64,000 bases of DNA, from the UHGV virus genome UHGV-0289908; one strand, written 5' to 3'. Each line of letters opens with the position of its first letter. Position 1 is the first letter of the stretch. Position numbers and translations under genes: made by a program. This DNA comes from a virus. Shown here piece after piece: positions 32,585 through 62,011 of this stretch. The notes beneath the pieces were generated by a model. It was given only the letters and a program-made list of their open reading frames with translations, was not told the origin of the DNA and did not search any database.

Positions 32585-32681
32585 TTTTTAAAAACTCCTT
32601 AAAATCACTTATTAAAATTTTCTACTCATTCATTAGAAAAAGACTAGAGAGTGTTGACTCCCTAGTCTCTGTGTGCTATAA

Positions 32682-36002: not shown

Positions 36003-37556
36003 CTACCCTCTTTCGTTTCCGTCATTTTCACGGGTTGATTCTCCCGTAGCTGACAAGTCTTCGTCTGCTACCTCTGGTCTTCCATCTTTGTCGTCTGTTA
36101 CCTCTCCATCTCCACTTTGAGTGTATGATGAGTTTAATGGAATCCAGTTGTTGTGTAATTCTAGGATATCGTTTTCTAAGAATGTTAATCCACTAATCTC
36201 TAATGGACTGCTTTGCCCAACGACTGCCGCCATTTGCATTTTTGTTGGTAACCCTAAAGTTGCGGCACTGGTTAATTGAGAAATGACTTCCTCTTTGTTA
36301 TATCCTGTCACATCTAATAGTTTGATTTTAAACATTCCATTGAAGCGACGTTTGAATTTACGGTTTAACCAACGCTCTAATGAGCGGTTAAGTTGGAACA
36401 AGATTGCTTCGTCAGTCTTGATAGAGTATTTTGTAGAAGTAGAGTTGTCTCCACCATTAAATAACATGTCTGTAACACCAATGGTATCATAGAAGTTTTG
36501 CACTGCGTCTTTAACTTTATTCTTGTTATTGTTCGCATCACGGAAACTGATATCTTTTACTGGTAATGGAGTAACAAATGTTCCAATGCTCTCATCAATA
36601 GATTGACGAGCCATGTTGTAGAATTGTAAAGCGGTTGACGCTTTAACTTCAAAGTTGTCTGGCTTCTCTGATTTTCCACTCATACGAGGGATTTCAAATG
36701 CTAATAAGCGATAGTTATTTTGTTCCGTGCTTACTTTCTCCAAGTTTTTATAGTCTTGGATATCAACGACATCTAAAGCCGCTGAAACATAGTAAGGGTA
36801 ACAATAAGGTAAATCCTCTTGTAATTTAAAACAGATAGACTTGTCTGACGGAACTTCTTGCCATTGATACAATGAACTGTCAGACTTGTACTTTGTATAT
36901 CCACTGCGGAAGAATGATGGCACAATCGTTTCATACGTGTTTAATAAAGTTTCTTCGTCATCATCGTTGTCGAAGAATGAGAAGTCAAACTCAAAATTGT
37001 AGCAAGCATCCTCTACAGATGAAATACGACAATAGTCTGGGTTTAATTGTTTAATGTAATATGAACTGTTTTTCTCGTCTTCGTACTCAATTCCATAGAA
37101 AACATCTTCTCGGAAGCAAGTTCTCTTGACTTTAACAAATTCATGTGGTATACTTAACATATCGAGATAAGCAACTGCTTTATGATAGTTCTTAGCAATA
37201 TTCTCACGATTCGTTTCAAACTTATCTACTTGAGCAGGAACAATGATGGGGCAATCAATTCCGATACTCGGTAAATAGTTAACAATACGCTTATACATAA
37301 AGCTAGTGTTTTCCAAATAGCGAGATAGTTCTCGAAGTTGTTTTTCATAATCTTGAGGAGAAGACAGATACGAAGTGATTGCGTCTCGGTCATACTCTCC
37401 GACTTTGCTAATGATTGAGTCACTTACTCGTCGGTCGTGGCGAAGTCCAAGATTCATAGACTTCATTGCACGAGCAAATTCCATCATGAACAATTCTTGT
37501 TCGGCTTGTTCTTGAGCCTGTTCTTGAAGAATTTTCTCAGTCATATCAGTAGACAT
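36003..37556 (-). CDS. Portal protein (517 aa)
   Basis: Immediately downstream of the large terminase. Size and the acidic C-terminal tail (GDGEVTDDKDGRPEVADEDL) are typical of siphovirus portals. Confidence 0.65.
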   Translation of the reverse strand: MSTDMTEKILQEQAQEQAEQELFMMEFARAMKSMNLGLRHDRRVSDSIISKVGEYDRDAITSYLSSPQDYEKQLRELSRYLENTSFMYKRIVNYLPSIGIDCPIIVPAQVDKFETNRENIAKNYHKAVAYLDMLSIPHEFVKVKRTCFREDVFYGIEYEDEKNSSYYIKQLNPDYCRISSVEDACYNFEFDFSFFDNDDDEETLLNTYETIVPSFFRSGYTKYKSDSSLYQWQEVPSDKSICFKLQEDLPYCYPYYVSAALDVVDIQDYKNLEKVSTEQNNYRLLAFEIPRMSGKSEKPDNFEVKASTALQFYNMARQSIDESIGTFVTPLPVKDISFRDANNNKNKVKDAVQNFYDTIGVTDMLFNGGDNSTSTKYSIKTDEAILFQLNRSLERWLNRKFKRRFNGMFKIKLLDVTGYNKEEVISQLTSAATLGLPTKMQMAAVVGQSSPLEISGLTFLENDILELHNNWIPLNSSYTQSGDGEVTDDKDGRPEVADEDLSATGESTRENDGNERG

Positions 37557-43094: not shown

Positions 43095-43969
43095 TTAAAA
43101 TCACTCCTCTTAAAATCAAAGTCTCAAAACCATCTACCTTAAAGCAGATAAACAGTTTTGAGACTAGGAAGTCTCTATTGTGCAACACCTTGAGCTTCTT
43201 CTACCCTTAAGGCATTGTCTTATTGGTTTGGACAATCAAGCCCATTTCATGTATACTTCCAAGAAATCAATCTTGAAAGGCTAGTTGACGTTGCGTCTTC
43301 CGTTGAGCTTTATTTATTTTACCATTGTCACGCTCTATGACAACAAAGTGTGACTTGTTCCACTATTCTTTATTTTAAGCTAGTCTTAATGGCATAGACT
43401 AGAATCATTATAGGAAACAATGGGTAGTAACACAAACTTAATCGCCCTACCACCCATCCAAAACACTAGGTTTTATAGTTTACAATGGCTTCAACTTTTA
43501 ATTTGTTCCGACACTAGATAAATGTGAGTTGACAACACAATCGGGATTCTTCCCTCGCCAACATGGAGAACTTGTTCCATTAAGACTATTTCAAGTGTCA
43601 CACAATTACAACATAGCCCTCTGTGAGTAAGCACAAGTAGTGTGGTTATTGTAACTTAACGTGCCTGTGGATAATGACCTAGGACGGCTTGACAGTGGTT
43701 GCGACCCTCGTCTGACAAGTCTTACACTCCCTATGTCCAATAAACAACTACGCTAGCTTAATCGCCCGTAGGTTCTGCGTGTACAGTTAGAACACCTCAC
43801 GACTACAGTAGTTATATTTTCTGTCGCACTCTGCAAGCGACTGTCTAGCCCATATGTCTAGCATTAATGATGACAATAAGACTATGGATTGTCGCTATAC
43901 ACGTAGGTCATCACCCCTACGTATGCTCCCCTCTAGCCAAAAGCATGGTGGTCTAATGACCATGTTAAT

Positions 43970-44046
43970 TGGGGTTTCCTGTTGGATTCGAACCAACGAT
44001 AGCTCGGTTATGAGCCGAGAGCTTTGACCGACTAAGCTAAGGAAAC
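43970..44046 (-). tRNA. tRNA-Met (anticodon CAT; could be an initiator, elongator or lysidine-Ile type), CCA encoded
   Basis: Hand-folded reverse complement: acceptor GTTTCCT/AGGAAAC, D stem GCTT/AAGC, anticodon stem CTCGG/CCGAG with loop CTCATAA, T arm GTTGG-TTCGAAT-CCAAC, then C-CCA. Confidence 0.75.
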
Positions 44047-44424
44047 AAAATAAAAAGAATGACCCTCATGACAGCCACGTGGATAGCAGGAGAAAGAGTT
44101 TCAGCTCCCTTAGCCATTACTCGTGGATTTTTATGTAAGTTTAAAGTATCATCTTTCAGCTTTGTAGTATAAATAGCTTTGAAGTTTCAACTTTCAACTT
44201 TAAACCTTCAACTTTGAGCTTTTCCCATGTATAAGTATTTACCCTTGCTCCGACGACTCTCTGCGTCTAGCCGTAAATCTTCCATTTATCTGTATTGTTC
44301 TATAGATAAGCACTTTTGCCCAATATAAGTAGAAAGTAACGATTTATTAACCCAAAACCGTTGGAAAGGGGAATCTCTCTTTGTGCCACTTCGTCACAAG
44401 GGTCATATTATTTATCTAGTCAAA

Positions 44425-45057
44425 TTAGTCTTCAATTACAATCTTAGTGATTGCATTTGAGACTGTTAAAGCAGTGTCAATCTCTAACTCGAAGTCTAAG
44501 ATTTCTTGCTCACGTTTTTCGATTAAGTCACGTAACCCTAATGGGTCTACTAAATCCCAACCGTTTTTGTCACGATATGACTTTTCAAAAGAAGTGATGA
44601 ACTCATCCCTCTTGTTTGCTAAGTCTCCGCTTGCCATAGCCAACACTTGACGTTGGATATAGTCTTCGACTTTATCGTTCTCACGTGAAACTTTTGTTTC
44701 TGCATTGCGAAGAGCCTGCTTCATGCAAGCTAACACTTGTTTTTCGCTCTCAATGGTACGCTTGCGGTCAATGGCTGTCATCACTGAATAAGTAACTCCT
44801 GCAACCTCAATCATTGTTTGAGCGTTGGATGTCATGATGGCATGTTTTAATTGTTGCTGACGTTTTAATAAAGCGTCCGCAGAGTCCATGATTGTTTTAG
44901 CACGCACTGCAAAGTCTGCTACAGGTTCACGAGTTTCAGAAACTCTGTTCTCAGAATTCTTGCGTGTTCCAATGATACGGAAGTCTGATAATCGTTTGTC
45001 AATACGGCTCTCTAAGGTATTTAACTCGTTTAAAGCTCTTTGAACTGTCATTTCCAT
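44425..45057 (-). CDS. Hypothetical protein (210 aa)
   Basis: ORF from the track. Confidence 0.45.
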   Translation of the reverse strand: MEMTVQRALNELNTLESRIDKRLSDFRIIGTRKNSENRVSETREPVADFAVRAKTIMDSADALLKRQQQLKHAIMTSNAQTMIEVAGVTYSVMTAIDRKRTIESEKQVLACMKQALRNAETKVSRENDKVEDYIQRQVLAMASGDLANKRDEFITSFEKSYRDKNGWDLVDPLGLRDLIEKREQEILDFELEIDTALTVSNAITKIVIED

Positions 45058-45098
45058 ATGTATAACATCCCCTTTAAAATAAGTTTTTAAAATCGTTA

Positions 45099-45172
45099 TG
45101 GTGCTCCTACTCAGAATTGAACTGAGATTTCATCATTACCATTGATGTGTTCTGCCATTGAACTATAAGAGC
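45099..45172 (-). tRNA. tRNA-Thr (anticodon GGT), CCA encoded
   Basis: Reverse complement: acceptor GCTCTTA/TAGGAGC, D stem GTTC/GAAC, anticodon stem CATCA/TGATG with loop ATGGTAA, T arm CTCAG-TTCAATT-CTGAG, then A-CCA. Confidence 0.7.
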
Positions 45173-45218
45173 ATTTGTGGGAGGAATCCCACAGACTTTT
45201 ACCTGCATTCTTCCATTT

Positions 45219-45310
45219 TGGCGGACAGGGTGGAATTCGAATCCACGCACGACTAAAAGCCGTCTAATGCCTTAGCAGGGCACCCTCTTAAGCCACTTGA
45301 GTACCTATCC
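45219..45310 (-). tRNA. tRNA-Ser (anticodon GCT), class II with a long variable arm, CCA encoded
   Basis: Reverse complement: acceptor GGATAGG/CCTGTCC (one G-U pair), anticodon stem GTGCC/GGCAT with loop CTGCTAA, ~20-nt variable arm, T arm GTGGA-TTCGAAT-TCCAC, then G-CCA. Confidence 0.65.
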
Positions 45311-45417: not shown

Positions 45418-46524
45418 CTAGTAGTTCATTCCTTCAACAGAATAATTATACTCGTCTAAGAACGTATTCAAGTCATCAAGTGAAGATGGCACTGCCACTG
45501 CTCCACACTTGACCTGTTCCATTGCTTCGTCAACTTTTGTGATGGTATCTTCTGTTAAGTTTGGATTTTCCACTGGTAATCCAACACCATCCGCTTTGAT
45601 ATCCATTACAATCGTTTCTCCACCTTTGAAAGTGTTGTTTGCATGGTTTTCCACATGCTCATATGAAGCTCGTCCTAAATTCTTCATGGCAGATGTCAAG
45701 ATGACCGAACTACCATTGGAAATCAATCCTTCTGAATATTGGTCGATGTCAACTCCAACAATGTAAACGCTATCTCCAGACTCTGCTCGGCTCTTTGCTT
45801 CATTAATAGCTCCAACTCCGACTCCACCTGCTGCTTGCATGATAATGTCTGCTCCTTTATCATACATTGCTCCTGCAATAGCCTTTCCTGCGTCTACATC
45901 TGTGAATGTACCTTGATATAAATAGTCAATCACTTCAACATCTGTTCCGTAGATTGCATTGGCATAAGCCACACCTGCTACAAATCCCCATCCTAATTTT
46001 TGAACCGCAGGAACTTTCATTCCTCCAATGAATCCAACTTTGCCCGTTTGTGATTGTAAAGCTGACGCAACTCCCGTTAAGAAGCCTGCTTCATGTTCTG
46101 TGAAGAATACTGAGACGACATTGTCTCCAACTTCATAGTCCGACCCCACTAATGGAGTTCCATCAATCAATACAAAGTTGATGTCTGGGTAAATGGCTTG
46201 GGCTTGCCCTATGGCTTCTTCAAACTTGAATCCTGCCACAACAATGACCTCATTGCCTGCCATTACCAGATTATCAATGGCATTCATATAGTCTTGAGTT
46301 GACTCTCCGCTTGGTTGGATATATTGAATTTCTACGTTCTCATTATCTGCTTGATATTCCAATATTCCTTCCCAAGTCCCTTGGTTGAATGATTTGTCAT
46401 CAATAGTTCCAGAATCTGTAACCATCCCAACTTTTAATGTTGACTCAGATGGGGCAATCTCTTTTTTGCTACAACCGATTAGTGTGAATGCACACACTGC
46501 CAATAATAGTGTAAACTTTTTCAT
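45418..46524 (-). CDS. BMP-family (PnrA/TmpC/Med-like) nucleoside-binding lipoprotein, 368 aa from the corrected start
   Basis: Track ORF 45418..46569. A strong RBS GAGGAGGAAG lies 8 nt before the ATG at 46524. Signal peptide MKKFTLLLAVCAFTLIGC with lipobox LIGC. N-terminus KVGMVTDSGTIDDKSFNQGTWEGI matches the BMP-family signature. Confidence 0.75.
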   Translation of the reverse strand: MKKFTLLLAVCAFTLIGCSKKEIAPSESTLKVGMVTDSGTIDDKSFNQGTWEGILEYQADNENVEIQYIQPSGESTQDYMNAIDNLVMAGNEVIVVAGFKFEEAIGQAQAIYPDINFVLIDGTPLVGSDYEVGDNVVSVFFTEHEAGFLTGVASALQSQTGKVGFIGGMKVPAVQKLGWGFVAGVAYANAIYGTDVEVIDYLYQGTFTDVDAGKAIAGAMYDKGADIIMQAAGGVGVGAINEAKSRAESGDSVYIVGVDIDQYSEGLISNGSSVILTSAMKNLGRASYEHVENHANNTFKGGETIVMDIKADGVGLPVENPNLTEDTITKVDEAMEQVKCGAVAVPSSLDDLNTFLDEYNYSVEGMNY

Positions 46525-46543
46525 GGGTGTTCTTCCTCCTCGT

Positions 46544-46765
46544 TTACATAAAGCAGTCGTCAGTTGCAACTTCTTCGTCTAAATCTTTCTCAGCTTTTGC
46601 TTGGAATGATAATACTCCGTGTTTGTTATCAGCGTTTGCTAATAAATCTTGGATGAAGCAAACTCCTTCATCTTCTGTTTCGATTGTCATGTCGTCAACA
46701 TTTAAAGTCCCAGTGACTTTGATGGTATGAGTTTCGACAATCTTTTCTTGAATTGATTTTGCCAT
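46544..46765 (-). CDS. Hypothetical acidic protein (73 aa)
   Basis: ORF from the track. Overlaps only the spurious N-terminal extension of the lipoprotein ORF. Confidence 0.4.
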   Translation of the reverse strand: MAKSIQEKIVETHTIKVTGTLNVDDMTIETEDEGVCFIQDLLANADNKHGVLSFQAKAEKDLDEEVATDDCFM

Positions 46766-51917: not shown

Positions 51918-52037
51918 AAATATAAACCTCCTTTTGTCTTGTTTGTATTGGGAGAAACTTCCAGTTCACCCCTATACTTATATTATAACTTGATTGGTGT
52001 TTTTTATCAATTCGTTTTATAATATTTAAGCGAAAGA

Positions 52038-52838
52038 CTAAGCTCTTTCAGTGTTCTCAATAATGCTAACCGAGATTGCTCGAAGGTCTCCCTCAAACAC
52101 TCGTGCTACCACTTGATAAAACTCCCAAGTCATGTCCATATGCGAACAAATGTATTCCATACGATTGGTGTTTGACTTTACCTCTCCACGCTCAATGGCT
52201 CTTCGTAAACGGATATCAACATTCATGTGGTGAGCTAAGTCAAACTCCTTGTAAGCAAGGGCATAGCGTCCTTGATATCCACCACGTGCTCCGAAACGGA
52301 TGATTTGATTAATGCGTTGACGTAGTTCTGGTTTTGGTGAGTCTTGCGTTAATCCCATAATGATTTGCTTTTGATGTTCAATCTCTTTCATTTGGGTTTC
52401 AATTTTGACATTCTGTTGCTGAATGATAGCATCTTTCTTATTCAGTGTTTGTTGGGCAATCATAAGAGCCTTAGCCATAATGGTTGCTTCATCATCTTCT
52501 TGAGCTACAGGGATGTAACCACCTGTCGTGCGAATTTGCTTTAGGATTTTCTTAACTTCTTTCTTGAATGCCTTAGCGATTGGTTTACGTGATTGCATAA
52601 GAACTTCATACAATCCATCTTCGGTTAAGAACCAAGCTCTTTGCTTTCCTCCAAGGGTACAAACATTGTTTGTAACCTTTTCTTCTTCATCAACTTTACG
52701 CAACATTGTTGAAACATCACTGTGTTCAATCCATTCTGCCACATCTTTTGCTAGGAACAATGGAGCTTCCTTAGTCCCATACATTTTAAATTCTTTTTCG
52801 AGCACTACCTGCTCATGCACTACTGTTAATGCTGTCAT
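52038..52838 (-). CDS. Bro-N / KilA-C-like antirepressor-family protein (266 aa)
   Basis: N-terminal ~110 aa resemble Bro-N domains (FLAKDVAEWIEHS...WFLTEDGLYEVLMQSRKPIAKAFKKEV), followed by a coiled coil and a C-terminal domain. Confidence 0.5.
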   Translation of the reverse strand: MTALTVVHEQVVLEKEFKMYGTKEAPLFLAKDVAEWIEHSDVSTMLRKVDEEEKVTNNVCTLGGKQRAWFLTEDGLYEVLMQSRKPIAKAFKKEVKKILKQIRTTGGYIPVAQEDDEATIMAKALMIAQQTLNKKDAIIQQQNVKIETQMKEIEHQKQIIMGLTQDSPKPELRQRINQIIRFGARGGYQGRYALAYKEFDLAHHMNVDIRLRRAIERGEVKSNTNRMEYICSHMDMTWEFYQVVARVFEGDLRAISVSIIENTERA

Positions 52839-53057
52839 TTCATTCTTTCTCCTTTATGTATTTTTCAGACATGCCCTCAGAAGCCATATAAGGCGATTTA
52901 AGAAGGCTAAGTATAACGATGATTAATTTATCGACCGAAACGCTATCTCTTCTCAGAGAGCCTTAAAATGCGTCTCAGAGGTATTCTAGAGTTGCAAAAC
53001 TCCGTATTTGAAGTTCTCATCGACATATTTGATTATAGCATTATTTGTCACTATTTG

Positions 53058-54128
53058 TCAAGAGGTTTTTCGTTCTTTTAATTTTTCTTTTATTTTGGGT
53101 TCAAGATGGGTTTTTTGAGAGACATCTCCACAGGCTCTAAAAAGGACTTTCCCATCTTCTTTCCACTTTTTTGAGAGAATGCTCCGACTCGCTCTGTCCT
53201 TGTACCCTAACAAGGGCTTATCCTTTTCTACTTTCGATTGTTTGCGAGCAAATGTTTGTTCATTACTGGTTCGAGAGATGGCATTGATTCTGGAAGTCAA
53301 TGAGTCAATGGTAATTCCCAATTCTTGTTGTTGTTGATAACGTTCTTTTACCATTTCTTCATATCCTTCACTGATGGCTATTTCGTAACACTTGTAATAG
53401 AAACGAATTCCAATTTCCTTAAGACCTTCATTCACATTTCGGATATATTCTCCCCAACGTCCATCTGCAATAATGGCACTTTCCCCGCTACGTAAATCGT
53501 ACCCCATGTGTTTCATAGCACCGTGACGAACATTGATGATATTTGCCAAATCTCCCCCAGTTGCTTCATGGTACTCTCCTTGAGTATCACAGAAGACAAT
53601 GATATCCCGTTTAATTAAACGACCTTGACTTTCCATTCTTTTAAACATCGTTTGAATTCTGTCGTCAGCTTTATCATAAGTTCTTTCAAAGAAATATCGA
53701 GTGGCAATAGAAGAAGTACCCAATAACTTCTCTGTGATGTCTTGATTCTTATAGCAAATGTTAAAGTTGTGATTTACATAGCCCAAGGATTGAAATAGAT
53801 TGAGCTTCGTGATTCGTAACACCCTAGAATTCCCGTTAACCTGTTCAGCATTGGCTAATAGGTTAATCATGACTTCCTCGGATAAGTCCTGTAATTCAGA
53901 CCTACGGGTTCTAACAACAGGAGTTGCTTCACCAGTAACTTCGGTAATGATGTATTTATGACCTGCACGTGTCCATTTGCAATATTGCTCCAATGTTTTC
54001 ATTTGTGCTTTCCAACTGTCGCTTCCACCTTTGTAGATTGTCCATCCCATAATAGCACAAATCTCTTTATAGTTCTTAAATTCACGTCCGACCCAAAGTT
54101 CGGATTTATTAACCTTGTACTTACTCAT
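53058..54128 (-). CDS. Hypothetical protein (356 aa), first gene of the leftward gene train
   Basis: ORF from the track, downstream of the leftward promoter at 54273-54301. Confidence 0.5.
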   Translation of the reverse strand: MSKYKVNKSELWVGREFKNYKEICAIMGWTIYKGGSDSWKAQMKTLEQYCKWTRAGHKYIITEVTGEATPVVRTRRSELQDLSEEVMINLLANAEQVNGNSRVLRITKLNLFQSLGYVNHNFNICYKNQDITEKLLGTSSIATRYFFERTYDKADDRIQTMFKRMESQGRLIKRDIIVFCDTQGEYHEATGGDLANIINVRHGAMKHMGYDLRSGESAIIADGRWGEYIRNVNEGLKEIGIRFYYKCYEIAISEGYEEMVKERYQQQQELGITIDSLTSRINAISRTSNEQTFARKQSKVEKDKPLLGYKDRASRSILSKKWKEDGKVLFRACGDVSQKTHLEPKIKEKLKERKTS

Positions 54129-54142
54129 AAATGTACCCCTTT

Positions 54143-54180
54143 CTATGTTTCAAAAAAAGCCCCTATATTAACCCCCCTAA
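54143..54180 (-). promoter_or_regulatory. Leader hairpin plus U-tract (attenuator-like) between the leftward promoter and the first gene
   Basis: Minus-strand RNA reads CTATATTA-GGGGGGT-TAATATAG GGGCTTTTTT. Confidence 0.4.
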
Positions 54181-54272
54181 TATAGTTATTATATTATATA
54201 TTTAGGGGTTTTAAACAGGGGTATTTTTTTTGTTTCAGCTCTGACATCAGTTCGTCAAAACTCGACTTCCTT

Positions 54273-54301
54273 ATTTTATAATATTTAAGCACAGTTGTCA
54301 A
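54273..54301 (-). promoter_or_regulatory. Leftward sigma-A-type promoter
   Basis: On the minus strand: TTGACA (54301-54296), 17 nt, TAAAAT (54278-54273). Confidence 0.5.
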
Positions 54302-54774
54302 TAGTTTTTCGGTACAAAGTTTAACAACTTCGTACCTCACACATCCAAGCTCCGTCACTTCGTTCCTACCTTGTCTGTGGTTATTGACCATGAAATGAAG
54401 TATTATGACCCGTCCGAACTGTGAGGGACGAACAGTTTGGCGGTAAGGTCACAATACGAATGGAATGAGTATTGTGACCGCAAAATCTTTTTATCAATAA
54501 AATTTTTTATTTACCGACATTTTATTGTAATGGGTATGAGCCTTAATATAGGACGATTTAAGAAGGGGTTATTTAGGGTATGGTTAATTTTATATGGGGA
54601 TGTGTAACGTTGCTTAGAAAGGCTTATATTGCGTTATAGGGGTATTGTGAGCCATCTATATAATGATGAATGTGATATATGGGTATGGGGACAAATATAG
54701 AATATGGGGTATTTATACGGAAACACACCCCCTCCCCTTTCCATATATAGAAAATGGTGTTTTTCAATTTTTCA

Positions 54775-54870
54775 CGTTTTTGAGCTATTTTTACGCATTT
54801 TTAACGTTTTTTGCTTAAAATTTGCTATTTTTTGTCGTTTTTCAGTGTTTTTTGTCGTTTTTTGCAAAAT
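54775..54870. repeat. Phased T5-6 tracts at 10-11-bp periodicity (intrinsically bent DNA)
   Basis: cacgttttt gagctattttt acgcattttt aacgtttttt gcttaaaattt gctatttttt gtcgttttt cagtgtttttt gtcgtttttt. Confidence 0.6.
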
Positions 54871-55299
54871 CAAGGTATAGGAAATGGGCTATTTTGACGG
54901 TATTTGGTCAAAATATAGCGACAAGAGGTAAAAAAGTGACCAAAATTGAGTCTGAAACAACGGATTTATCGGGATTTTGTATGAATTGCCCTATATAAAG
55001 GTTGAGATTTGAGGATGATTGTTCCATTTAGAAGGGCTGATTTTGGGGTAAATTAATGGAAATCTCAACCGTTTTAGGATAGTCTGTGGAGCTCCTTATG
55101 CTCTGAGTGGCATGAGAGACTATAGTCCGTAGTTGTCTTTGGACTATTCGGGAGTTTCTTGAGAATAGGTAGAAATACCAGTGGGAGACGAGGAAGTTCT
55201 GGAGATGGATATTCTCTTGAGTTCTTCGGTAGAGACTCGATATCTTTTGTGATTAAAATGGGCAAAAGTATTGATGGCAGTAGTGTTTGGAGGTCTTTT

Positions 55300-55440
55300 G
55301 CAGGGGTTAGAGGGAGCTAGAGGGAGAGGTGAATCTGGAGCGGGAGAGCTGAATGATGTGAGTGGGAAGAGCTTGAGAGGGAGAGGTTTGAGGGGGAAGT
55401 GGTGTGGAAGAGGTGTGGAATGAGCCGTGTGGGAATGGAA
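55300..55440 (+). repeat. Polypurine (GA-rich) tract with multiple G3-5 runs
   Basis: About 140 bp that are roughly 80% purine on the plus strand (gagggagctagagggagaggtgaatctggagcgggagag...gagggggaagtgg). Confidence 0.6.
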
Positions 55441-55704
55441 CAGATACCCGAGTCTGTTCGCATTTTTCGACCTTTTTCGACGTAAACCGACCCCCCTGTA
55501 AGCGTTTTCCAATGACCTATAATGTAGCTTATGAGTCCCCCAATGTGTTCAAATTGTGTCTTTTTTCTGGTTCGACAGGATTCGACATTTTCCCCAATTA
55601 TTCGACATCACTATAAAAGGTATAGCCCAAACTATACCTTTTAGGTAAAACGTTATAACCTTTTTATCGTTCAACCTGTCTATACATGTTGATGAAACAC
55701 ACAA

Positions 55705-55960
55705 ATACTAAACTTTTCCCTTACTATCACTAAACACGACCCACGACCCCCAAAAAGTTTACCTATATTAAACAAAAAGTTTACCCACACTAAACCACAC
55801 AAATATTAAACTTTAGGTTTAAAAATATTAAACCACAAAATTACTAAACAAAAAGTTTAAAATCACTAAACACCCTTATGTTTAGTCACACTAAACACAA
55901 GTTTAAAAATACTAAACATGACCTAGTTTATAAATACTAAACCAATGTTTATAAATACTA
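55705..55960. repeat. ACTAAAC iteron array (about 10 copies) interleaved with AAGTTTA repeats
   Basis: aaatACTAAACtttt, tcACTAAACacg, cacACTAAACcac, attACTAAACaaaa, tcACTAAACaccc, gtttagtcacACTAAACac, aatACTAAACatg, aatACTAAACcaatg, aatACTAAACtcaag. Confidence 0.6.
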
Positions 55961-55968
55961 AACTCAAG

Positions 55969-56012
55969 TTATCCACAAGCTACCCACTTATCCACAACCA
56001 ACCTGTGGATAA
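55969..56012. promoter_or_regulatory. Cluster of three DnaA boxes (TTATCCACA, TTATCCACA, and TGTGGATAA inverted); candidate replication origin
   Basis: Exact 9-mers at 55969-55977, 55988-55996 and 56004-56012, directly following the iteron array and preceding an AT-rich stretch. Confidence 0.6.
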
Positions 56013-56379
56013 CTACAAGCACAAACGCCGATAAAAGTCAAGTAAAAACTTAATTAAATTTTTCACAATGAAACCGTTTTCCTGCAATGCACACTTTTGC
56101 CTATTTGTCAACCCCCTTAAATTACCCCATGTAACCGCTTTATTTCAGCTTTTAAGGGGGGTCGGGTATAATAACCCTCAGAGCGTCTTAAAACGAAAAA
56201 CAGGAATTTCGACACGATTCGACACGCTAAAACGCTTACAATTTTTCTCATGTTGAAATTTGTCGAATTTTGTCACCGACCTTACTTCGTGAAATACTTC
56301 ACAAATCGAACGTGTTCGGTTATGTCCAACTTGTGTTCGAGTTTGTGAAATAATTAATAATGACACACCCGACCCTGTG

Positions 56380-56423
56380 GTATACGTGCGTGCGTGCGTG
56401 CGTACACGTGCGTACACGTATGT
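56380..56423. repeat. Perfect 44-bp alternating purine-pyrimidine tract ((CG/TG)n), Z-DNA-prone
   Basis: gtatacgtgcgtgcgtgcgtgcgtacacgtgcgtacacgtatgt, with strict R-Y alternation checked base by base. Confidence 0.6.
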
Positions 56424-56487
56424 CCATATATAGACACGACCTCAAAAGTTTGTGAAATATTTAATTTAAAAGAACACAAAATGAACA

Positions 56488-56516
56488 CAACTTCACCCCG
56501 TGACCGTGGTAATATA
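56488..56516 (+). promoter_or_regulatory. Rightward promoter P0 (extended -10 TGgTAATAT, weak -35), followed by the conserved ATAAGTGTGCTnAGG start region
   Basis: -10 at 56510-56515. The transcript begins with a GUGCUGAGGGGCAC hairpin. Confidence 0.4.
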
Positions 56517-56604
56517 TAAGTGTGCTGAGGGGCACGGGTTGAGCCCCGACACAATTCGACAAATTATGTCGAAAATAAAAAATTAAATTTTTTTCGAAAA
56601 ACTG

Positions 56605-56633
56605 TTGACGGTAAAATCAACATGTGATAATAT
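56605..56633 (+). promoter_or_regulatory. Rightward promoter PA: TTGACG, 17 nt, TGaTAATAT. The -35 lies inside the palindrome TGTTGAC-N7-TCAACA.
   Basis: -35 at 56605-56610, -10 at 56628-56633, extended TG at 56625-56626. Confidence 0.6.
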
Positions 56634-56639
56634 ATAAGT

Positions 56640-56860
56640 GTGCTAAGGCACAGCATTCAGAATAGGCGTAGAAATTAAAGCCCGCATGTACTTTACGGGA
56701 AACACAAGACGTAAAGGTTGAAGTTAAAAACTCATAGCTAGGCTATGGCACTGGGGAATAATCGCCCCAGGTGAACTGATAGGCTGATAAGTTGGTTCAG
56801 ATTGACGTTCTTTAGTTCGGGGGTTGAAATTCTGAAAAACGAAAAAAATTTTTTAAAAAA
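56640..56860 (+). ncRNA. Candidate structured non-coding transcript downstream of PA (GC-enriched, many local hairpins)
   Basis: No ORF. Hairpins GCCCGCATGTACTTTACGGGAAAC, CATAGCTAGGCTATGG, CTGGGGAATAATCGCCCCAGG and GTTCGGGGGTTGAAATTCTGAA, ending in an A/T run before the next promoter. Confidence 0.3.
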
Positions 56861-56864
56861 ACTG

Positions 56865-56893
56865 TTGACTTCAAAATCAACAGGTGATATACT
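56865..56893 (+). promoter_or_regulatory. Rightward promoter PB: TTGACT, 17 nt, TGaTATACT. The -35 lies in the palindrome TGTTGACttcaaaaTCAACA.
   Basis: -35 at 56865-56870, -10 at 56888-56893. Confidence 0.55.
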
Positions 56894-57263
56894 TGATTTG
56901 TGTTGGTGAGTGTCCTAAGCAACTCGGAGGTCTAGGTGAAACCCCTCATTTGGGATATAGTGAATCGCACAGGGTCATTTCCCCGCGTGGTCACGGTTCT
57001 TTGAAAACATTATACAAAATCATAACGGGATAACCCGCAAGTCGCACGGGATAAGTAGCGAGACCCTAACATTAGAGTCGGATGGGCGAAAAAAGAGGGG
57101 CGATAATAGAGAGTAGTATAGCATAGTGGATTGAGTGATTGAACAGGTGCTAAGGCGGGCGAACGTTTGAAGCCGTTAGAGACTACCCGACCGCACACGT
57201 CACGAATACGGCAACATCCACAGGGACGACCAAAAAATCAAAAATCAAAAAGGACGTGATAAT

Positions 57264-58019
57264 ATGGAAACAATCAAATTTACTCGTAAAAAACAATTCT
57301 TAACATTTTTAAATGAAACGGTATCTACAAAATGTGACGAAATTCGACATCTAGAGTCTATTGTAGACAAAAAGTTTATTGAAACGGTTGGTTACCGATT
57401 AGGAATTGAGTACACTGAACAATACTCTTATGAGGCGATTTTCGCTGGATATGAGGGAGAAAAAGCAATCATCAATAATATCCAACGTTCTACCTTATGG
57501 GATATGTCATATCATGCCAATGGTTTAATGGCAAAAATGAATGAACAAATTGAATACTTGCAATTTGCTATTGAACACGGTAAAAAATTCGCAACTTATG
57601 GCGATTGTATTAAAGCATGGCATGAATTTAAAGATAACGGGACAATTCCGACAGAAATCGACACGGAAAAAGTCGAAAAAGCGGAATCATTTGATGACAA
57701 AACTTGTAAAAATCAAGTAGAATTTTTAAATGTGGTGCAAAAAGATTTACAAAACCACTCAAATCGACAAGCACGAAAAAAGCAACTTAACGAAGAAACG
57801 ATAAAAAACGACACGGAAAATGTGGAAAATGTAGAAAAAACAGAAGAAACAACACCATGTAAAAATTGTAAAACATGTGCAAATTGTTTCCACTGTGAGT
57901 TAGATGGGGAATATGGAGAATGTAAAAATAGGTCGTGCATAGTGAGGAGAAAAGATAGCTGTTCACTGTTCATGTATAAACTTGAGTCAAGCTCCCCAAC
58001 GGGTCACACTAAAACGTAA
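57264..58019 (+). CDS. Early protein (251 aa) with a C-terminal Cys-rich cluster (9 Cys in 35 aa)
   Basis: ORF from the track. The roughly 370-nt GC-rich leader runs from PB. Confidence 0.55.
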   Translation: METIKFTRKKQFLTFLNETVSTKCDEIRHLESIVDKKFIETVGYRLGIEYTEQYSYEAIFAGYEGEKAIINNIQRSTLWDMSYHANGLMAKMNEQIEYLQFAIEHGKKFATYGDCIKAWHEFKDNGTIPTEIDTEKVEKAESFDDKTCKNQVEFLNVVQKDLQNHSNRQARKKQLNEETIKNDTENVENVEKTEETTPCKNCKTCANCFHCELDGEYGECKNRSCIVRRKDSCSLFMYKLESSSPTGHTKT

Positions 58020-58084
58020 AAAATTAGTGTGACCACTGGAGGGCTTGACCCTGTAAAAATCAAAAAAAATTGGAGGAAATTAAA

Positions 58085-58351
58085 ATGCAAAAATATTATG
58101 TTACTATGAACGATACTTTTATGAGTGGATGGGGTTGTGCTGATGGAAAAATTAACAAATTAATCTTTGAATGTGATTCATACCATGAAGCGGAAATTGT
58201 AGCGGATAATGCTCGCTACCGTGGGGATATGAAATACATCAACATCAATCACAATAAACCACGATATAGCGGTACACGCTATCTAGTGCAGGAAAAAACA
58301 AAAACGGACTACCCGAATTGGTATGAGAAAAATTATTTCTATAAACACTAA
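58085..58351 (+). CDS. Hypothetical early protein (88 aa)
   Basis: ATG at 58085, 7 nt after GGAGG within TTGGAGGAAATTAAAATG. The track start at 58070 is a TTG lying inside the RBS. Confidence 0.55.
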   Translation: MQKYYVTMNDTFMSGWGCADGKINKLIFECDSYHEAEIVADNARYRGDMKYININHNKPRYSGTRYLVQEKTKTDYPNWYEKNYFYKH

Positions 58352-58468
58352 AAAATAGTCGTGTGGGCGACTTAAAAAAGGCACTTAAGCCCACAGCGTC
58401 CACCCGTTGCGGGTGGGGTGTGCACTTGAAAAAAGTGTGTAAAATATGAATTTTATGGAGGTATTACA

Positions 58469-58690
58469 ATGACTTATATTGTGAAATTTATCAATGCGAA
58501 AAAAGAAAATCCATGCGGTAGCGAGTGGACACGAATTATTAAAGATTTAAAAACAATTCGAGGGGTTGAAAATCGCATTACACGTGGGGTTAAACCTGTT
58601 GGAGCTGTCGGTTATAATATCTATCAAACGGCAAATATTTATGATGAAAAAAGTTATAGATTAATGCAAAAAGTTTATTTCACTAATTAG
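58469..58690 (+). CDS. Hypothetical early protein (73 aa)
   Basis: RBS GGAGG 8 nt upstream. Confidence 0.55.
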   Translation: MTYIVKFINAKKENPCGSEWTRIIKDLKTIRGVENRITRGVKPVGAVGYNIYQTANIYDEKSYRLMQKVYFTN

Positions 58691-58751
58691 TAGTAACACA
58701 AGACACAAAAAAATTTGTGTCCTGTATAGTGCTAATTAATAGCATGAAAAA
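58688..58751 (+). repeat. Repeated intergenic element, copy 1 (TAGTAGTAAC..GACACAAAAAAATTTGTGTC..TGCTAATTAATAGCA..GAAAAA)
   Basis: Near-identical to copy 2 at 59275-59337. Contains two hairpins. Confidence 0.6.
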
Positions 58752-58773
58752 TAAAAAATTGGAGGAAATTAAA

Positions 58774-59277
58774 ATGTTTACTATGGAAATTATCAACTAC
58801 ACAACTGATGAGGTTTATTATTTTGAGCGTTGGAGTGAAATCGAAGGAAAATTAGAGGAATTACAAGCTACTCACCCAACCCACGAAATTGGAGTATCAC
58901 ACTTTACAATATTTGGGGTGGAAATTCCATATACTAAGGAAAATGTAGAATTTATCAACTCACACGACGGCGAAGAAATTGAAGCGGTTATTACATACTA
59001 TACCAACGAATACGGTGTAGTCCCTATGGTAGAATTGCAAGACGTGGCGGACTATATGGAAAATAGAGCATGTGTGACCTATTATTTAGGGGACGACGAA
59101 ATCGAAGCGTTCGAAAATTATTGTGATGAGTTGGGAATGTTTAAGGATGTACCCGAACACGTGACACGATATATTGACTATGAAAAAATGTTGCGTGACT
59201 ATAAATTTGACGGTATGGGGGTTTACCGCTTATCATATGACCACCCGACACAATATCGCTATATGTTCTGTAATTAG
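58774..59277 (+). CDS. Hypothetical early protein (167 aa)
   Basis: ATG at 58774 after TTGGAGGAAATTAAAATG, which is identical to the RBS context of the 58085 gene. The track ORF is N-terminally extended. Confidence 0.55.
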   Translation: MFTMEIINYTTDEVYYFERWSEIEGKLEELQATHPTHEIGVSHFTIFGVEIPYTKENVEFINSHDGEEIEAVITYYTNEYGVVPMVELQDVADYMENRACVTYYLGDDEIEAFENYCDELGMFKDVPEHVTRYIDYEKMLRDYKFDGMGVYRLSYDHPTQYRYMFCN

Positions 59278-59337
59278 TAGTAACGCAAGACACAAAAAAA
59301 TTTGTGTCTTGAATAGTGCTAATTATAGCATGAAAAA
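59275..59337 (+). repeat. Repeated intergenic element, copy 2
   Basis: TAGTAGTAACgCAAGACACAAAAAAATTTGTGTCttGaATAGTGCTAATTATAGCATGAAAAAA. Confidence 0.6.
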
Positions 59338-59362
59338 ATATAAAAATATTGGAGGTTATCCT

Positions 59363-59440
59363 ATGAAAAGTTTAAACTATTTTATGTTTGGACTGATTAC
59401 CGTTTGGGTCGGTTGTAGTATTATTGTTACAGTTTTCTAA
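59363..59440 (+). CDS. 25-aa hydrophobic micropeptide (MKSLNYFMFGLITVWVGCSIIVTVF)
   Basis: RBS TTGGAGG 7 nt upstream. Single predicted TM helix. The track shows only an overlapping out-of-context 88-aa ORF. Confidence 0.4.
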   Translation: MKSLNYFMFGLITVWVGCSIIVTVF

Positions 59441-59499
59441 TTAAAAAAATATAAAATTGTGATTTTATTCACATATGCACACACTGGAGGATAAAAAAA

Positions 59500-59685
59500 A
59501 TGTTAGTAATTAAAATCATTGACACACTATCAAATATCATTACGGAAATTTTTTACATGGTCGCATGTGGCTTATATATGGCATGGCAATATCGAGCCCT
59601 TATATTTGCTTGTGGAATTGTTGCGACGGTGTTCTTTTTAGGATTATATGGGTACTGTTTACGAATTGAAGGAATTTTATTTTAA
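59500..59685 (+). CDS. Small membrane protein (61 aa, two hydrophobic segments)
   Basis: RBS CTGGAGGA upstream. Confidence 0.5.
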   Translation: MLVIKIIDTLSNIITEIFYMVACGLYMAWQYRALIFACGIVATVFFLGLYGYCLRIEGILF

Positions 59686-59692
59686 AAATATG

Positions 59693-59721
59693 TTGACAGT
59701 AAAATCAACATATGATAATAT
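59693..59721 (+). promoter_or_regulatory. Promoter PC: TTGACA, 17 nt, TGaTAATAT. The -35 lies in the palindrome TGTTGACagtaaaaTCAACA.
   Basis: -35 at 59693-59698, -10 at 59716-59721. Followed by ATAAGTGTCAAC. Confidence 0.55.
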
Positions 59722-59756
59722 AATAAGTGTCAACAACTTAAGGAGGTCATTAACTT

Positions 59757-59969
59757 ATGAATTTTAATAGAACATATTGCGGAAAAAAATTTAGTATTAC
59801 CATTGAATTGCCTTATGACGAGGGAAATTGCGGATATATTAAAGTAGAAAATCATCCTTTAGAAAATTTTGAATATTGGGAATCATTCACGTGGTATCCA
59901 TTCATTGAGACATTGGACGAACGTCTACAGGATGTTGAGGAAGAAATTAAAGAGTTTTTACCTAATTAG
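59757..59969 (+). CDS. Hypothetical early protein (70 aa)
   Basis: RBS AAGGAGG upstream. Confidence 0.55.
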   Translation: MNFNRTYCGKKFSITIELPYDEGNCGYIKVENHPLENFEYWESFTWYPFIETLDERLQDVEEEIKEFLPN

Positions 59970-60056
59970 TGTCATTTAAAAGGTATTAAAAAATAATACC
60001 TTTACTAATGCTACTAATAGCATGAAAAAAAAATAAAAAACTGGAGGAATTGAAAA

Positions 60057-60290
60057 ATGGTAGTATCTTTAAAAACTGTAATTAGAATCATGAATGAAAT
60101 TGAAAAGATGGAAAATTTAGACGGGGATAGTTTAGAGTATGCAACAGACATTGAGCAGGAAAATCGTTACATAATACGAGCTTATGACCCTAACACAAAT
60201 AGGACTTTATACGTGTACATTAGCAAGCCGAAAAATCGCTATACATACGAATATAAATTTGTAGACGGTGAAAATTTTAATCAATATTAA
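60057..60290 (+). CDS. Hypothetical early protein (77 aa)
   Basis: RBS CTGGAGGAATTGAAAAATG. Confidence 0.55.
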   Translation: MVVSLKTVIRIMNEIEKMENLDGDSLEYATDIEQENRYIIRAYDPNTNRTLYVYISKPKNRYTYEYKFVDGENFNQY

Positions 60291-60364
60291 TATTATTATA
60301 CCATGTGACCTATTTAAAATAGGTCGTATGAATATTGACATGATATGTCAAGTTAAAAAATGTG

Positions 60365-60393
60365 TTGACATTGAAAACAACATGTGGTAATAT
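60365..60393 (+). promoter_or_regulatory. Promoter PE: TTGACA, 17 nt, TGgTAATAT. It is preceded at 60335-60350 by the palindrome TTGACATgaTATGTCAA.
   Basis: -35 at 60365-60370, -10 at 60388-60393. Confidence 0.55.
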
Positions 60394-60429
60394 TTAAGTA
60401 TCGAAAAAATAATTTGGAGGAATTAATTT

Positions 60430-61053
60430 ATGAAAACTTTAGACGTGAAAAATTTATTTGTGGGAACTATGGATAATGAAACGGTTGTGACTTTAAACAT
60501 TAAACAGGTAGAATCTAATGGGGTGTATACGCTAGACGCACACTATTGTCAATCAGTAATCGAGCACGAAAAAATTTATGATGTTGAGAGTGAGCTGACC
60601 TCATTCATTGACAACGCTCGCTATGATAACAACTCTATGCGTGTGGTATTTGATTGGTTATATGACTATGATTGTGCCCTATCCGATTTAGCTTACAACA
60701 TTGCGTCGGAGTGCGAAGGTGATGTATACAAGACAAGGGAAATTCTTGAAGCAATGGACATTTATTGCGACCACGATTCATATGAGGAGGAAGCTATTGC
60801 AACAACAGAATGTAACGGGAAAAAATTCTACCTAATCGAGCAAGATAGTGAGGTCGCACCGTTTGATGGTACGAATGTATGGGGGACAAAATTAGCATAT
60901 CCCGTATTTATTCAACTATTCGCATTGATTGAGGTATACAACCACAAATACTATAGTGAATCACTTGCGGAGGAAATTAAACTAGCGGTTGAAAAATGCA
61001 ATGCAAATTTACAGGAACATTTTGAAGCCTTCATCCAACACATTGAACAATAA
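60430..61053 (+). CDS. Highly acidic early protein (207 aa); DNA-mimic / anti-restriction candidate
   Basis: ORF from the track. Very high Asp/Glu content throughout. RBS TTGGAGG. Confidence 0.5.
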   Translation: MKTLDVKNLFVGTMDNETVVTLNIKQVESNGVYTLDAHYCQSVIEHEKIYDVESELTSFIDNARYDNNSMRVVFDWLYDYDCALSDLAYNIASECEGDVYKTREILEAMDIYCDHDSYEEEAIATTECNGKKFYLIEQDSEVAPFDGTNVWGTKLAYPVFIQLFALIEVYNHKYYSESLAEEIKLAVEKCNANLQEHFEAFIQHIEQ

Positions 61054-61147
61054 TAGCTTGTGACACTATACCATATGTCCTATAGGTCATATAGGACATA
61101 TGAATATTGACACAAGTCAATGAAATAAAACTTATTGGAGGAATATT

Positions 61148-61570
61148 ATGATTAAAAACATAACTACAACATACGGAAAATTTGAATTGCGAGCGATTCA
61201 CGCTCAAGAAAAAAATGCACCGTGGGAAGATGGAAAAGATAGAACACACTGTCACTATATTATCCGTGTAAAGGATGTAGAGACAAAAAAATTCTTTGTG
61301 TTCGATTATTGGACATCATTAGCAAACCCAATTATCAATAGCAACGTGGAAATTTTAAAAGCCTTCGAATTATTTTTAGATGATTGTTTGATTGCTACTG
61401 ATACCGTGGAAAATTTCATCTATCGTAACGAATTTAAGTCAGAAAAGGAAGCACGTCGAATCTATGCAACATGTACTCGCTCACTAAGAAAAATGCAACG
61501 ACTATATGATGAGTCTATTGTAGATTTGGCGAACAACTTAAGTACTCATATTAATAATTTAACGGTTTAA
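61148..61570 (+). CDS. Hypothetical early protein (140 aa)
   Basis: RBS TTGGAGG. Upstream lie the TTGACAcaaGTCAA palindrome and a 13-bp inverted repeat. Confidence 0.55.
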   Translation: MIKNITTTYGKFELRAIHAQEKNAPWEDGKDRTHCHYIIRVKDVETKKFFVFDYWTSLANPIINSNVEILKAFELFLDDCLIATDTVENFIYRNEFKSEKEARRIYATCTRSLRKMQRLYDESIVDLANNLSTHINNLTV

Positions 61571-61632
61571 TACATAAGGGGACAACAGTCCCCACCCTAT
61601 CAATACTTATGAAAAATTTGGAGGTTTGTCAC

Positions 61633-61884
61633 ATGAAAAAAATTAAAATTCTATGCACTGTTGGATTATTGTCTGCACTGACCTTAATTGTTGGGTGCTC
61701 GAATCAAGAGACAGTGCACGATAGATTTGCATTAGGAAAAAACAATAGCCCCGTTACTGTTTGGTTAGAAAAAGGGGACGCTATCGAACGCAATGGGAAA
61801 CTCATCTTTTCAGCGACGGAAAGCACTGAGGTCGAGCTGATTGTTTATGGAAATTATAAAATTTTTACCCCAAACAAAAAATAA
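61633..61884 (+). CDS. Small lipoprotein (83 aa), a superinfection-exclusion-type candidate
   Basis: ATG at 61633 after GGAGG, then MKKIKILCTVGLLSALTLIVGCSNQ (signal peptide plus lipobox LIVGC). Confidence 0.5.
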   Translation: MKKIKILCTVGLLSALTLIVGCSNQETVHDRFALGKNNSPVTVWLEKGDAIERNGKLIFSATESTEVELIVYGNYKIFTPNKK

Positions 61885-61888
61885 AGTG

Positions 61889-61917
61889 TTGACTTTGTGG
61901 TCAATGTATGATAATAT
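61889..61917 (+). promoter_or_regulatory. Promoter PG: TTGACT, 17 nt, TGaTAATAT, with the palindrome TTGACtttgtgGTCAA
   Basis: -35 at 61889-61894, -10 at 61912-61917. Confidence 0.55.
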
Positions 61918-62011
61918 AAGAGTATAGTTTTAATCAGTCTACAACGATTGTTGTAGATTGAATTAAGACTGATAGTCTGAAAAATTCGAAAATACTGGAG
62001 GAATTAAAATT

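Follow-up and report, generated by a model that had tools for sequence, protein, structure and literature searches.

Palindromic sites in many copies within early promoters, and cassettes that join a promoter to a stem-loop, are already known; the CIRs of phage phiC31 and the stoperators of phage L5 are precedents for palindromic sites of this multi-copy kind. What is new in the present analysis is a conserved element in an undescribed phage clade, an inverted repeat (the dyad, below) that overlaps the -35 element and spacer of a family of rightward promoters in UHGV virus genome UHGV-0289908, of which a stretch of 64,000 nucleotides (nt), here called the window, was analysed. In phage SPbeta about 10 promoters contain a palindrome named SPBRE, to which the master repressor MrpR (YopR) binds (PMC10516654). 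The phage studied here resembles SPbeta in being a large siphovirus with a YonO-type polymerase, in carrying its polymerase and HU-like genes leftward and small early genes rightward, and in having a short imperfect palindrome repeated in many early promoter regions. The palindromes themselves differ: SPBRE, extracted from SPbeta and recovered as about AAATACAAAAAATATGTATATA, is unrelated in sequence to the dyad, which we therefore do not regard as an SPBRE, and its position varies relative to the -35 and -10, whereas the dyad is fixed on the -35. Neither an MrpR-like protein nor a sign of lysogeny was found in the sequence available (the 64-kb window and about 4 kb past its right end).

Other described systems share some of these features. 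The PeSL elements of T4-type phages (PMC4122927) are likewise repeated near-consensus early promoters with a stem-loop, flanking small variable open reading frames (ORFs) and lying at mosaic breakpoints, but their stem-loop is a separate, terminator-like element beside the promoter, whereas the dyad overlaps the -35 and the spacer and has no sense-strand U-tract. In phages phi29 and Nf the host's dimeric regulator Spo0A~P represses the early promoters through 0A boxes that overlap them; at Nf A2c the footprint of Spo0A takes in two imperfect TGTtGAA boxes, and RNA polymerase is shut out (PMC2731898). Here, too, perfect 0A boxes are strongly clustered next to promoters, and the arms of the dyad resemble TGTtGAA; the arms, however, match the box at only 5/7 positions, are inverted with N6 between them, and have an invariant A in place of G. 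Phage SPO1 resembles the present phage in that its early promoters, which lie in the terminal redundancy, are strong, of sigma-A type, equipped with UP-like tracts and arrayed before small host-takeover-type genes, and in that it encodes an HU-family protein, but its promoters lack the dyad in the pairing test (see below). The HU-like SPO1 protein TF1 reportedly binds early promoter regions. Finally, the E. coli LexA box, TACTGT-N8-ACAGTA, has a 6-N8-6 layout with an A/T-rich centre and often overlaps promoter elements; its geometry is that of the dyad and its sequence is different, which argues only that the geometry suits a dimer, and we saw no evidence of a LexA-like protein in this phage sequence.

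The promoter family and its -35 dyad

The composite pattern TGTTGAC-N15-TGnTAnnnT matches the window six times, against 0.01 expected. Five of these matches are the promoters P1 to P5 of Table 1, and the remaining one, at 32652, stands alone in the late region; a preliminary description of this DNA had reported at least five rightward promoters, these five, that share TTGAC, a spacing of 17, TG and the -10, and this is indeed the case. An independent repeat search groups the same five sites as one family (41–50-nt copies, 68–84% identical). Each has an A/T-rich UP-like tract, a TTGACn -35 (n being G, T or A), a spacer of 17 base pairs (bp) with the extended element TRTG, and the -10 TAATAT (TATACT at 56865), and each lies upstream of a Shine-Dalgarno site and an ORF. 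By sequence they are near-consensus host sigma-A-type extended -10 promoters with an UP element. They stand in tandem arrays with no terminators between them, and we call them early because of their promoter type, because of the content of the rightward gene cluster (which includes an ArdA-like antirestriction gene), and because the phage has a polymerase of its own for later genes.

The five promoters share one dyad axis. If T1 of TTGAC is taken as position 1, position i pairs with position 17-i, and the arms are 5–9 bp long. The consensus is TGTTGA-N8-TCAACA (20 bp), in which the left arm is a "TG" followed by TTGA, the start of the -35, and the right arm occupies spacer positions 13–18 of this layout. 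Directly upstream of the left arm is a run of five to seven As (positions -8 to -4 are A in 34–36 of 36 promoters). The pattern TGTTG-N10-CAACA has four matches in the window where 0.2 are expected, and every one of them is at a promoter.

The earlier proposal that the -35 is half of an inverted repeat thus holds at all five promoters, and on a single axis, but two of the four palindromes it cited, TTGACATGATATGTCAA and TTGACACAAGTCAA, are not -35 boxes of the listed promoters: they are spaced differently, and no -10 lies at the proper distance from them. The first of these belongs to a second class, TTGACA-N3-7-(T)GTCAA, which lies upstream of Shine-Dalgarno sites in related phages; the second stands in place of the full promoter L004_15227 (L numbers denote contigs of related phages) and looks like a -35 arm joined to an initial-transcribed arm, with the promoter core missing. 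Two further parts of that description did not survive inspection of the regions downstream of the -10. The sequence ATAAGTGT, said to follow every promoter, is seen only after 56605 and 59693 among the five, and also at P0 (56507); and where a conserved hairpin at the transcript 5' end had been claimed for three promoters, GTGCTnAGGCAC is exact only at 56640, P0 has the variant GTGCTGAGGGGCAC, and the stem-loop at P5 is a different one. This last (61925-61971) has a predicted fold of 21 bp with -23 kcal/mol and z -5.2, and is kept downstream of the orthologous promoters in L003, L139, L004 and L141. The P1 start is expected at about 56640, in which case its RNA would open with the hairpin GUGC-UAAG-GCAC (56640-51). 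P0 appears to be a copy of the -10 and downstream part of a promoter whose -35 was lost in the window genome; in L004 and L014 the orthologues still have a -35, TTGACG, separated from the -10 by 18 bp, and lack a canonical dyad.

A further palindrome, TTTGACGGTATTTGGTCAAA, is found in the non-coding region at 54894-54911, with no -10, and is kept in five lineages (the window, L001 at 7780, L003 at 7728, L004 at 7731 and L010 at 7752).

Contigs of related phages were found through homologues of the first early protein (42–88% identical) and of a 207-amino-acid (AA) early protein, and represent at least seven lineages. From them and the window we assembled a set of 61 non-identical promoters, selected only by the pattern TTGA[CT]-N15-TGnTAnnnT and an A/T-rich upstream tract, so that the TG in this set is a selection criterion and not independent evidence; the lineages behind it are window/L001-2, L003/L010, L139, L004/L141, L011, L014, L005 and L007-9. 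Positions C14, A15 and A16 have information contents of 1.6, 2.0 and 1.5 bits, similar to those of the hexamers, and the upstream T(-1) and G(0) have 1.1–1.3 bits, while loop positions 7–8 have only 0.3–0.5. The TTG:CAA core pairing is kept in 54 of the 61 promoters, and 43 have at least five contiguous pairs (mean 34 and maximum 41 in 500 permutations). When all anti-diagonals were scanned, with promoters whose 3' half was taken from another family member as control, only two axes stood out, that of the dyad (z 4.7) and an outer axis (z 4.1). On the dyad axis 77.3% of cells are paired versus 70.7 ± 0.9 after shuffling, and the covariation score is 0.238 versus 0.118; 0/500 shuffles reach 0.238, and the slid controls stay at or below 0.131, though these shuffle statistics overstate significance, there being few independent events among related sequences. 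Lack of conservation of the palindromic halves in related genomes had been named as grounds for abandoning the idea; they are kept there, at the same position. Both the place and the sequence of the dyad are thus preserved in at least seven related phages, and its self-complementarity exceeds what column composition explains. Identical promoter cassettes also recur among these genomes (window P4 and L002_17938, for example). Brevibacillus phage Sundance was tried as a comparison and set aside, for although its early protein is 62% identical it has too few consensus promoters to inform.

The dyad is the mark of one promoter class, and is general neither to strong Firmicute promoters nor to the promoters of this phage. 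The phage's three leftward sigma-A-type promoters, which are intergenic, are kept in L003 and L004, and drive (in order) a 356-AA gene, a Bro-N gene, and an 84-AA gene plus the YonO-type polymerase gene, serve as an internal control: the dyad and the upstream TG were looked for in all three and found in none. A TTG/CAA pair at the dyad geometry occurs in 0/7 SPbeta promoters and in one of the 12 promoters of Enterocloster phage CB473P1. In SPO1 the pairing test gave 0/3, and one of eight looser candidates has CAA at positions 14–16.

Table 1. Positions of the predicted promoters, repeats and principal genes in the 64,000-nt window
Feature	Position	Strand	Remarks
P0	56507-56535	+	extended -10 TGGTAATAT 56507-56515; no -35; then ATAAGTGT
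P0 hairpin-like GTGCTGAGGGGCAC	56522-56535	+	variant of GTGCTnAGGCAC
P1	56578-56651	+	UP-like A/T tract; -35 TTGACG 56605-10; TG 56625-26; -10 TAATAT 56628-33
P1 dyad	56603-08 / 56617-22		TGTTGA / TCAACA
P2	56838-56900	+	UP tract; -35 TTGACT 56865-70; TG 56885-86; -10 TATACT 56888-93
P2 dyad	56862-68 / 56877-83		CTGTTGA / TCAACAG
P3	59673-59734	+	-35 TTGACA 59693-98; -10 TAATAT 59716-21
P3 dyad	59688-96 / 59705-13		ATATGTTGA / TCAACATAT; 9-bp arms
P3 outer repeat	59692-98 / 59728-34		GTTGACA / TGTCAAC
P4	60345-60405	+	-35 TTGACA 60365-70; -10 TAATAT 60388-93
P4 dyad	60363-67 / 60378-82		TGTTG / CAACA
P5	61870-61971	+	-35 TTGACT 61889-94; -10 TAATAT 61912-17
P5 dyad	61889-93 / 61900-04		TTGAC / GTCAA; common axis, arms displaced inward
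Stand-alone palindrome TTGACATGATATGTCAA	60335-60351	+	no -10, so not a promoter -35
Stand-alone palindrome TTGACACAAGTCAA	61107-61120	+	in place of full promoter L004_15227
Leftward sigma-A-type promoters	51982-54301	-	54301->54273; 53061->53032; 52010->51982
Perfect Spo0A boxes (8)	55571-56573	both	TGTCGAA/TTCGACA; within 1 kb upstream of the promoter array
Large leftward genes	1-54,128	-	portal (phrog_2739), 2,639-AA and 2,186-AA proteins, exonuclease, three tRNAs
HU/IHF-family dimeric DNA-binding protein, 97 AA	46786-47079	-	PF00216, 30.6 bits, cut-off 22.4; candidate binder only
YonO-type single-subunit RNA polymerase, 917 AA	48068-50821	-	by homology
Non-coding region, ~3 kb	54,128 to 57,264		between the end of the leftward block and the first rightward gene
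Small rightward genes	from 57,264 onward	+	strong GGAGG ribosome-binding sites

Possible roles of the dyad

These comparisons indicate that the dyad is a selected, class-specific element. We take the palindrome to be functional because exact reverse complementarity between a conserved 6-mer and its neighbour is very unlikely to be accidental, and we take it to be under selection because CAA at 14–16 is as well conserved as the hexamers, next to spacer positions that vary freely among divergent lineages. Our tentative preference, to which we give a probability of about 40%, is that the dyad serves as the operator of a DNA-binding protein, a symmetric dimer, which would block the -35. A bound dimer would cover -38 to -18 (the -35 together with the upstream spacer half) and so exclude sigma region 4 or RNA polymerase; binding would switch off the whole rightward early class together and leave alone the leftward promoters, from which the phage RNA polymerase is expressed, and the likeliest binder would be a phage-encoded repressor or shut-off protein. 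The 6-N8-6 layout has an A-rich centre. Three properties fit protein recognition better than they fit a hairpin: the outer arm positions retain particular bases (T, G / C, A) in place of free covariation, almost every promoter has exactly N8 between the arms, and 15 of 49 predicted hairpins (~30%) are weaker than -3 kcal/mol.

Several observations weigh against an operator. The early-gene products, searched against Pfam and PHROG, gave no helix-turn-helix or other DNA-binding match, no cognate repressor was found within the sequence available, and the AlphaFold model of the first early protein has a pLDDT of 55, a low confidence that makes it unusable. To these must be added the overstated shuffle statistics and the instances of compensatory change, arm lengthening and promoter-less hairpins described in the next paragraphs. 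The dimeric-repressor switch of the preliminary description is therefore upheld in part: the conserved halves, the class specificity, a layout that would exclude polymerase and the SPBRE/MrpR precedent speak for it, and the missing cognate protein and the compensatory changes speak against it. Two window proteins are generic candidate binders, the HU/IHF-family protein and a Bro-N protein (52038-52838). HU/IHF-type proteins kink DNA at points 9 bp apart, as known from IHF structures; the flexible TG and CA steps of the dyad are 12 bp apart, and a symmetric site of the HU/IHF type was accordingly rejected.

If the dyad is an operator, it would define the early regulon of an uncultured SPbeta-like gut phage clade whose members encode YonO-type polymerases, and it would provide a 20-bp bait for the protein that ends early transcription, bearing on the handover from host to phage RNA polymerase. 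Since the -35 itself would be reused, each strong early promoter would be repressible by construction, while the promoters of the polymerase gene would escape. The motif in any case permits early promoters to be annotated in related metagenomic contigs.

We consider it rather unlikely that the dyad acts not as a protein site but as a hairpin, in read-through RNA or in single-stranded DNA, in which the -35 region would pair with the spacer or instead, at some promoters, with the initial transcribed region; such promoter-plus-stem-loop cassettes might mark processing or stability boundaries or promote cassette shuffling, as in the T4-type PeSL. Much of what points this way is compensatory change, which base pairing explains at least as well as protein recognition does and of which a sequence-specific protein would have no need. 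The P2 arms TGTTGA/TCAACA have become GCTTGA/TCAGGC in the L004, L011 and L014 orthologues; in L004_11118 and L011_2341 the arms have lengthened to 9 bp (CACGTGTTG/CAACACGTG) while five of the eight loop bases differ; and an A at position 0 stands opposite a T at 17 in 4/4 cases, although this last covariation loses most of its weight in that all four cases are in one clade rich in T17, and an A at position -1 is compensated in 0/4. There are perhaps three to five independent compensatory events. Templated quasi-palindrome mutation could create such compensation without selection. The predicted hairpins average -5.15 kcal/mol, compared with -3.9 ± 0.24 when arms are swapped between promoters, but they have short stems (5–7 bp) and 8–10-nt loops, no promoter has a shorter and more stable loop though space allows one, the outer pairs are kept as specific bases, and the fold energies of the plus and minus strands are equal. 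An excess of G:T over A:C pairs was considered as evidence of a plus-strand RNA hairpin and discarded, as it is automatic: the 5' arm is made up of T and G alone, so that every transition in the 3' arm yields a wobble; the strand energies, besides, are equal.

The pairing with the initial transcribed region forms the outer axis mentioned above. Some of the promoters have, from the -35 to the middle of the spacer, a sequence that recurs in inverted form from the end of the -10 into the initial transcribed region (Table 1 gives the repeat at P3), with arms of 11–16 bp and a perfect 16-bp case in L005_4947; the anti-diagonal sum is 41 (z 4.1), and L008_3355 and L008_3751 differ by a triple compensatory change. 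This repeat is not general, however, since slid controls score equally high. Hairpins of the form TTGACA-loop-TGTCAA, with 3–7-nt loops and no -10, also occur just upstream of ribosome-binding sites. Read-through is made plausible by the tandem promoters without intervening terminators, and processing of the early RNA by a conserved pistol ribozyme within the cluster. Mosaic breakpoints between relatives coincide with promoters and intergenic repeats: L002 and L001 part 34 nt upstream of P2, and the edges of the L002/L003 blocks lie at P4 and at an 86-nt intergenic repeat.

A wider version of this idea, to which we would give less credence still, is that three elements, namely the dyad on the -35, the outer repeat enclosing the core promoter and the TTGACA...TGTCAA hairpins that lack a promoter, are one self-pairing cassette system, whose RNA or single-stranded DNA structures would mark read-through transcripts for processing or drive hairpin-mediated gain and loss of cassettes, and that the true early switch would be host Spo0A acting on the arrays of 0A boxes.

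It is also possible, but quite unlikely, that the dyad has no function of its own, being an element of promoter strength or an inheritance from one duplicated ancestral promoter, with a palindrome that is fortuitous or maintained by mutation. The promoters are clearly paralogous, with recurring identical cassettes and mosaic junctions at promoters, and SPO1 early promoter 5751, which has ACAAGG at positions 13–18 and a "TG" preceding TTGAC, resembles the family in part; G/T-rich bases just 5' of a -35 could, moreover, be an UP proximal subsite. Such a history does not readily account for CAA at 14–16 being conserved like the hexamers across lineages whose first early proteins are only 42–88% identical, nor for the exact reverse complementarity of neighbouring 6-mers, the chance of which we estimate at about 1 in 4096 per spacing tried. 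Almost all of the other strong sigma-A promoters checked, whether the leftward promoters of this phage or promoters of SPbeta, SPO1 and CB473P1, lack the dyad.

Spo0A deserves separate consideration. The window has 20 perfect 0A boxes where 8.7 are expected, and eight of them form the cluster of Table 1, which includes tandem pairs 10 bp apart (start to start) and, 30–45 nt upstream of P1 and beside its UP tract, an inverted pair TTCGACA-N5/6-TGTCGAA (56555-56573). This cluster, with its inverted pair next to the first dyad promoter, is kept in all lineages. Perfect boxes number 38 in 6.4 kb of L005 (dense at 990-2250) and 29 in 5.1 kb of L007 (dense at 1235-2101), including a 10-bp-phased array of about 22 ATTCGACATT units. 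In addition, a heptamer T(G/A)TCGA(A/T), like a Spo0A box, is present at about +1 in 11 of the 61 family promoters, always at the identical position (TATCGAA, 60399-60405, in window P4). With these boxes so near, it could be argued that the arms, which read TGTtGAc and TGTtGAt and are like the imperfect Nf box TGTtGAA, are weak Spo0A boxes through which host Spo0A~P silences the early promoters at the onset of sporulation, as in phi29 and Nf. We find this improbable. Each arm matches just 5/7 of the 0A consensus; all 61 promoters have A at position 15, which in a 0A box would have to be G, although the right arm would be free to be perfect and the phage has perfect boxes elsewhere; and the head-to-head 7-N6-7 arrangement differs from the tandem 7-N3-7 and the inverted N5 pairs of the perfect boxes. 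The dyad is thus probably not the Spo0A site. Control of the region by Spo0A through the perfect boxes is a separate and well-supported inference; such arrays point to a host that forms spores and to silencing or titration linked to sporulation, and silencing of that kind bears on phage persistence in the gut.

Least credible of all is that the minus strand forms an intrinsic terminator (a hairpin plus a T-run complementary to the UP A-tract) shielding the early cluster from leftward transcription, for although an A5-7 run precedes the left arm at each promoter and a terminator scan flags the P2 minus strand (CTGTTGATTTTGAAGTCAACAG then TTTTTTT), P2 alone passes (three G:C pairs), the stems have only 2–3 G:C pairs and loops of 8–10 nt, no leftward genes or strong leftward promoters lie downstream in the sequence to about 4 kb past the right end of the window, the UP element fully explains the A-tract, and terminators would be needless at every promoter.

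The phage and the elements around the promoter array

Judged by its genes, the phage is a large siphovirus of the SPbeta-like kind, with a YonO-type RNA polymerase of its own. The polymerase is 27% identical to SPbeta yonO and 36–38% to homologues in Clostridium phage c-st and Enterocloster phages, an RdRP Pfam match was seen on its L004 homologue, and its gene lies near the HU-family gene, which matches the yonO/yonN neighbourhood in SPbeta. Such a polymerase would imply an early phase served by the host polymerase and a late phase served by that of the phage. The L004 homologue is apparently split by an HNH/NUMOD4 gene. The portal protein is at most 36% identical to portals of large Bacillus, Brevibacillus, Alicyclobacillus and Lactococcus siphoviruses, and an identical first early protein occurs on human-gut metagenome contigs of 130–155 kb. 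Megablast of the region against INPHARED gave no match, and nothing was found in scans of IMG/VR with the 917-AA and 251-AA proteins or of JGI metagenomes and GTDB genomes with an alignment of the first early protein; a scan of GTDB with the DNA pattern TTGAC-N7-WCAAYA-NN-TGnTAAYAT gave, among the matches listed, only single scattered ones and no clustered prophage.

Within the leftward late-gene region there are two isolated plus-strand promoters, TGTTGACT-17-TATAAT with TGTG at 32652-32682 (the sixth composite match above) and TTGACT-17-TATACT with TGTG at 37126-37154, which may drive antisense transcripts. The leftward block also has a gene for a Bmp/PnrA-like substrate-binding lipoprotein (PF02608, 232 bits), with three tRNA genes beside it (region 45418-46569, 43298-43348 and 43970-45310, all on the minus strand); a borderline 6A RNA match falls in the same neighbourhood.

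The early cluster contains a pistol ribozyme (RF02679) between two early genes, at 58357-58423 on the plus strand, with 60.8 bits against a cut-off of 34.5, and it is present at the equivalent position in five lineages (L002 11094-11160, L003 11099-11164, L004 11462-11528, L139 1238-1302, L141 389-455). The early polycistronic RNA is thus probably self-processed. With relaxed thresholds, Rfam found only this ribozyme between 54.1 and 64 kb. Between P2 and the first early gene (57264) is a G+C-richer untranslated leader of 364 nt (56900-57263), in which GTTCTTTGA (56996-57004) never varies and, by prediction, pairs in 8/8 relatives with AAAGGAC (57249-57255), the ribosome-binding region; the leader showed no covariation and matched nothing in Rfam. 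An intergenic element of about 60–90 nt is present in three copies (58679-58773, 59266-59355 and 59988-60047), each made of a hairpin GACACAAAAAAATTTGTGTC followed by TGCTAnTTAnTAGCA-TGAAAAA at a fixed distance upstream of GGAGG, and some of the mosaic breakpoints between relatives coincide with it.

The non-coding region upstream of the array has three perfect DnaA boxes, at 55969 and 55988 (plus strand) and 56004 (minus strand), preceded by about ten iteron-like repeats, ACTAAAC / AGTTTA...TAAAC, with periods of 21–46 nt; the whole (55690-56012) is probably a replication origin or a regulatory region. Just upstream of the promoters, at 56385-56420, are alternating purine-pyrimidine repeats of the (CGTG)n and ACGTGCGTAC types, which in L005 have grown to about 120 nt (1994-2113).

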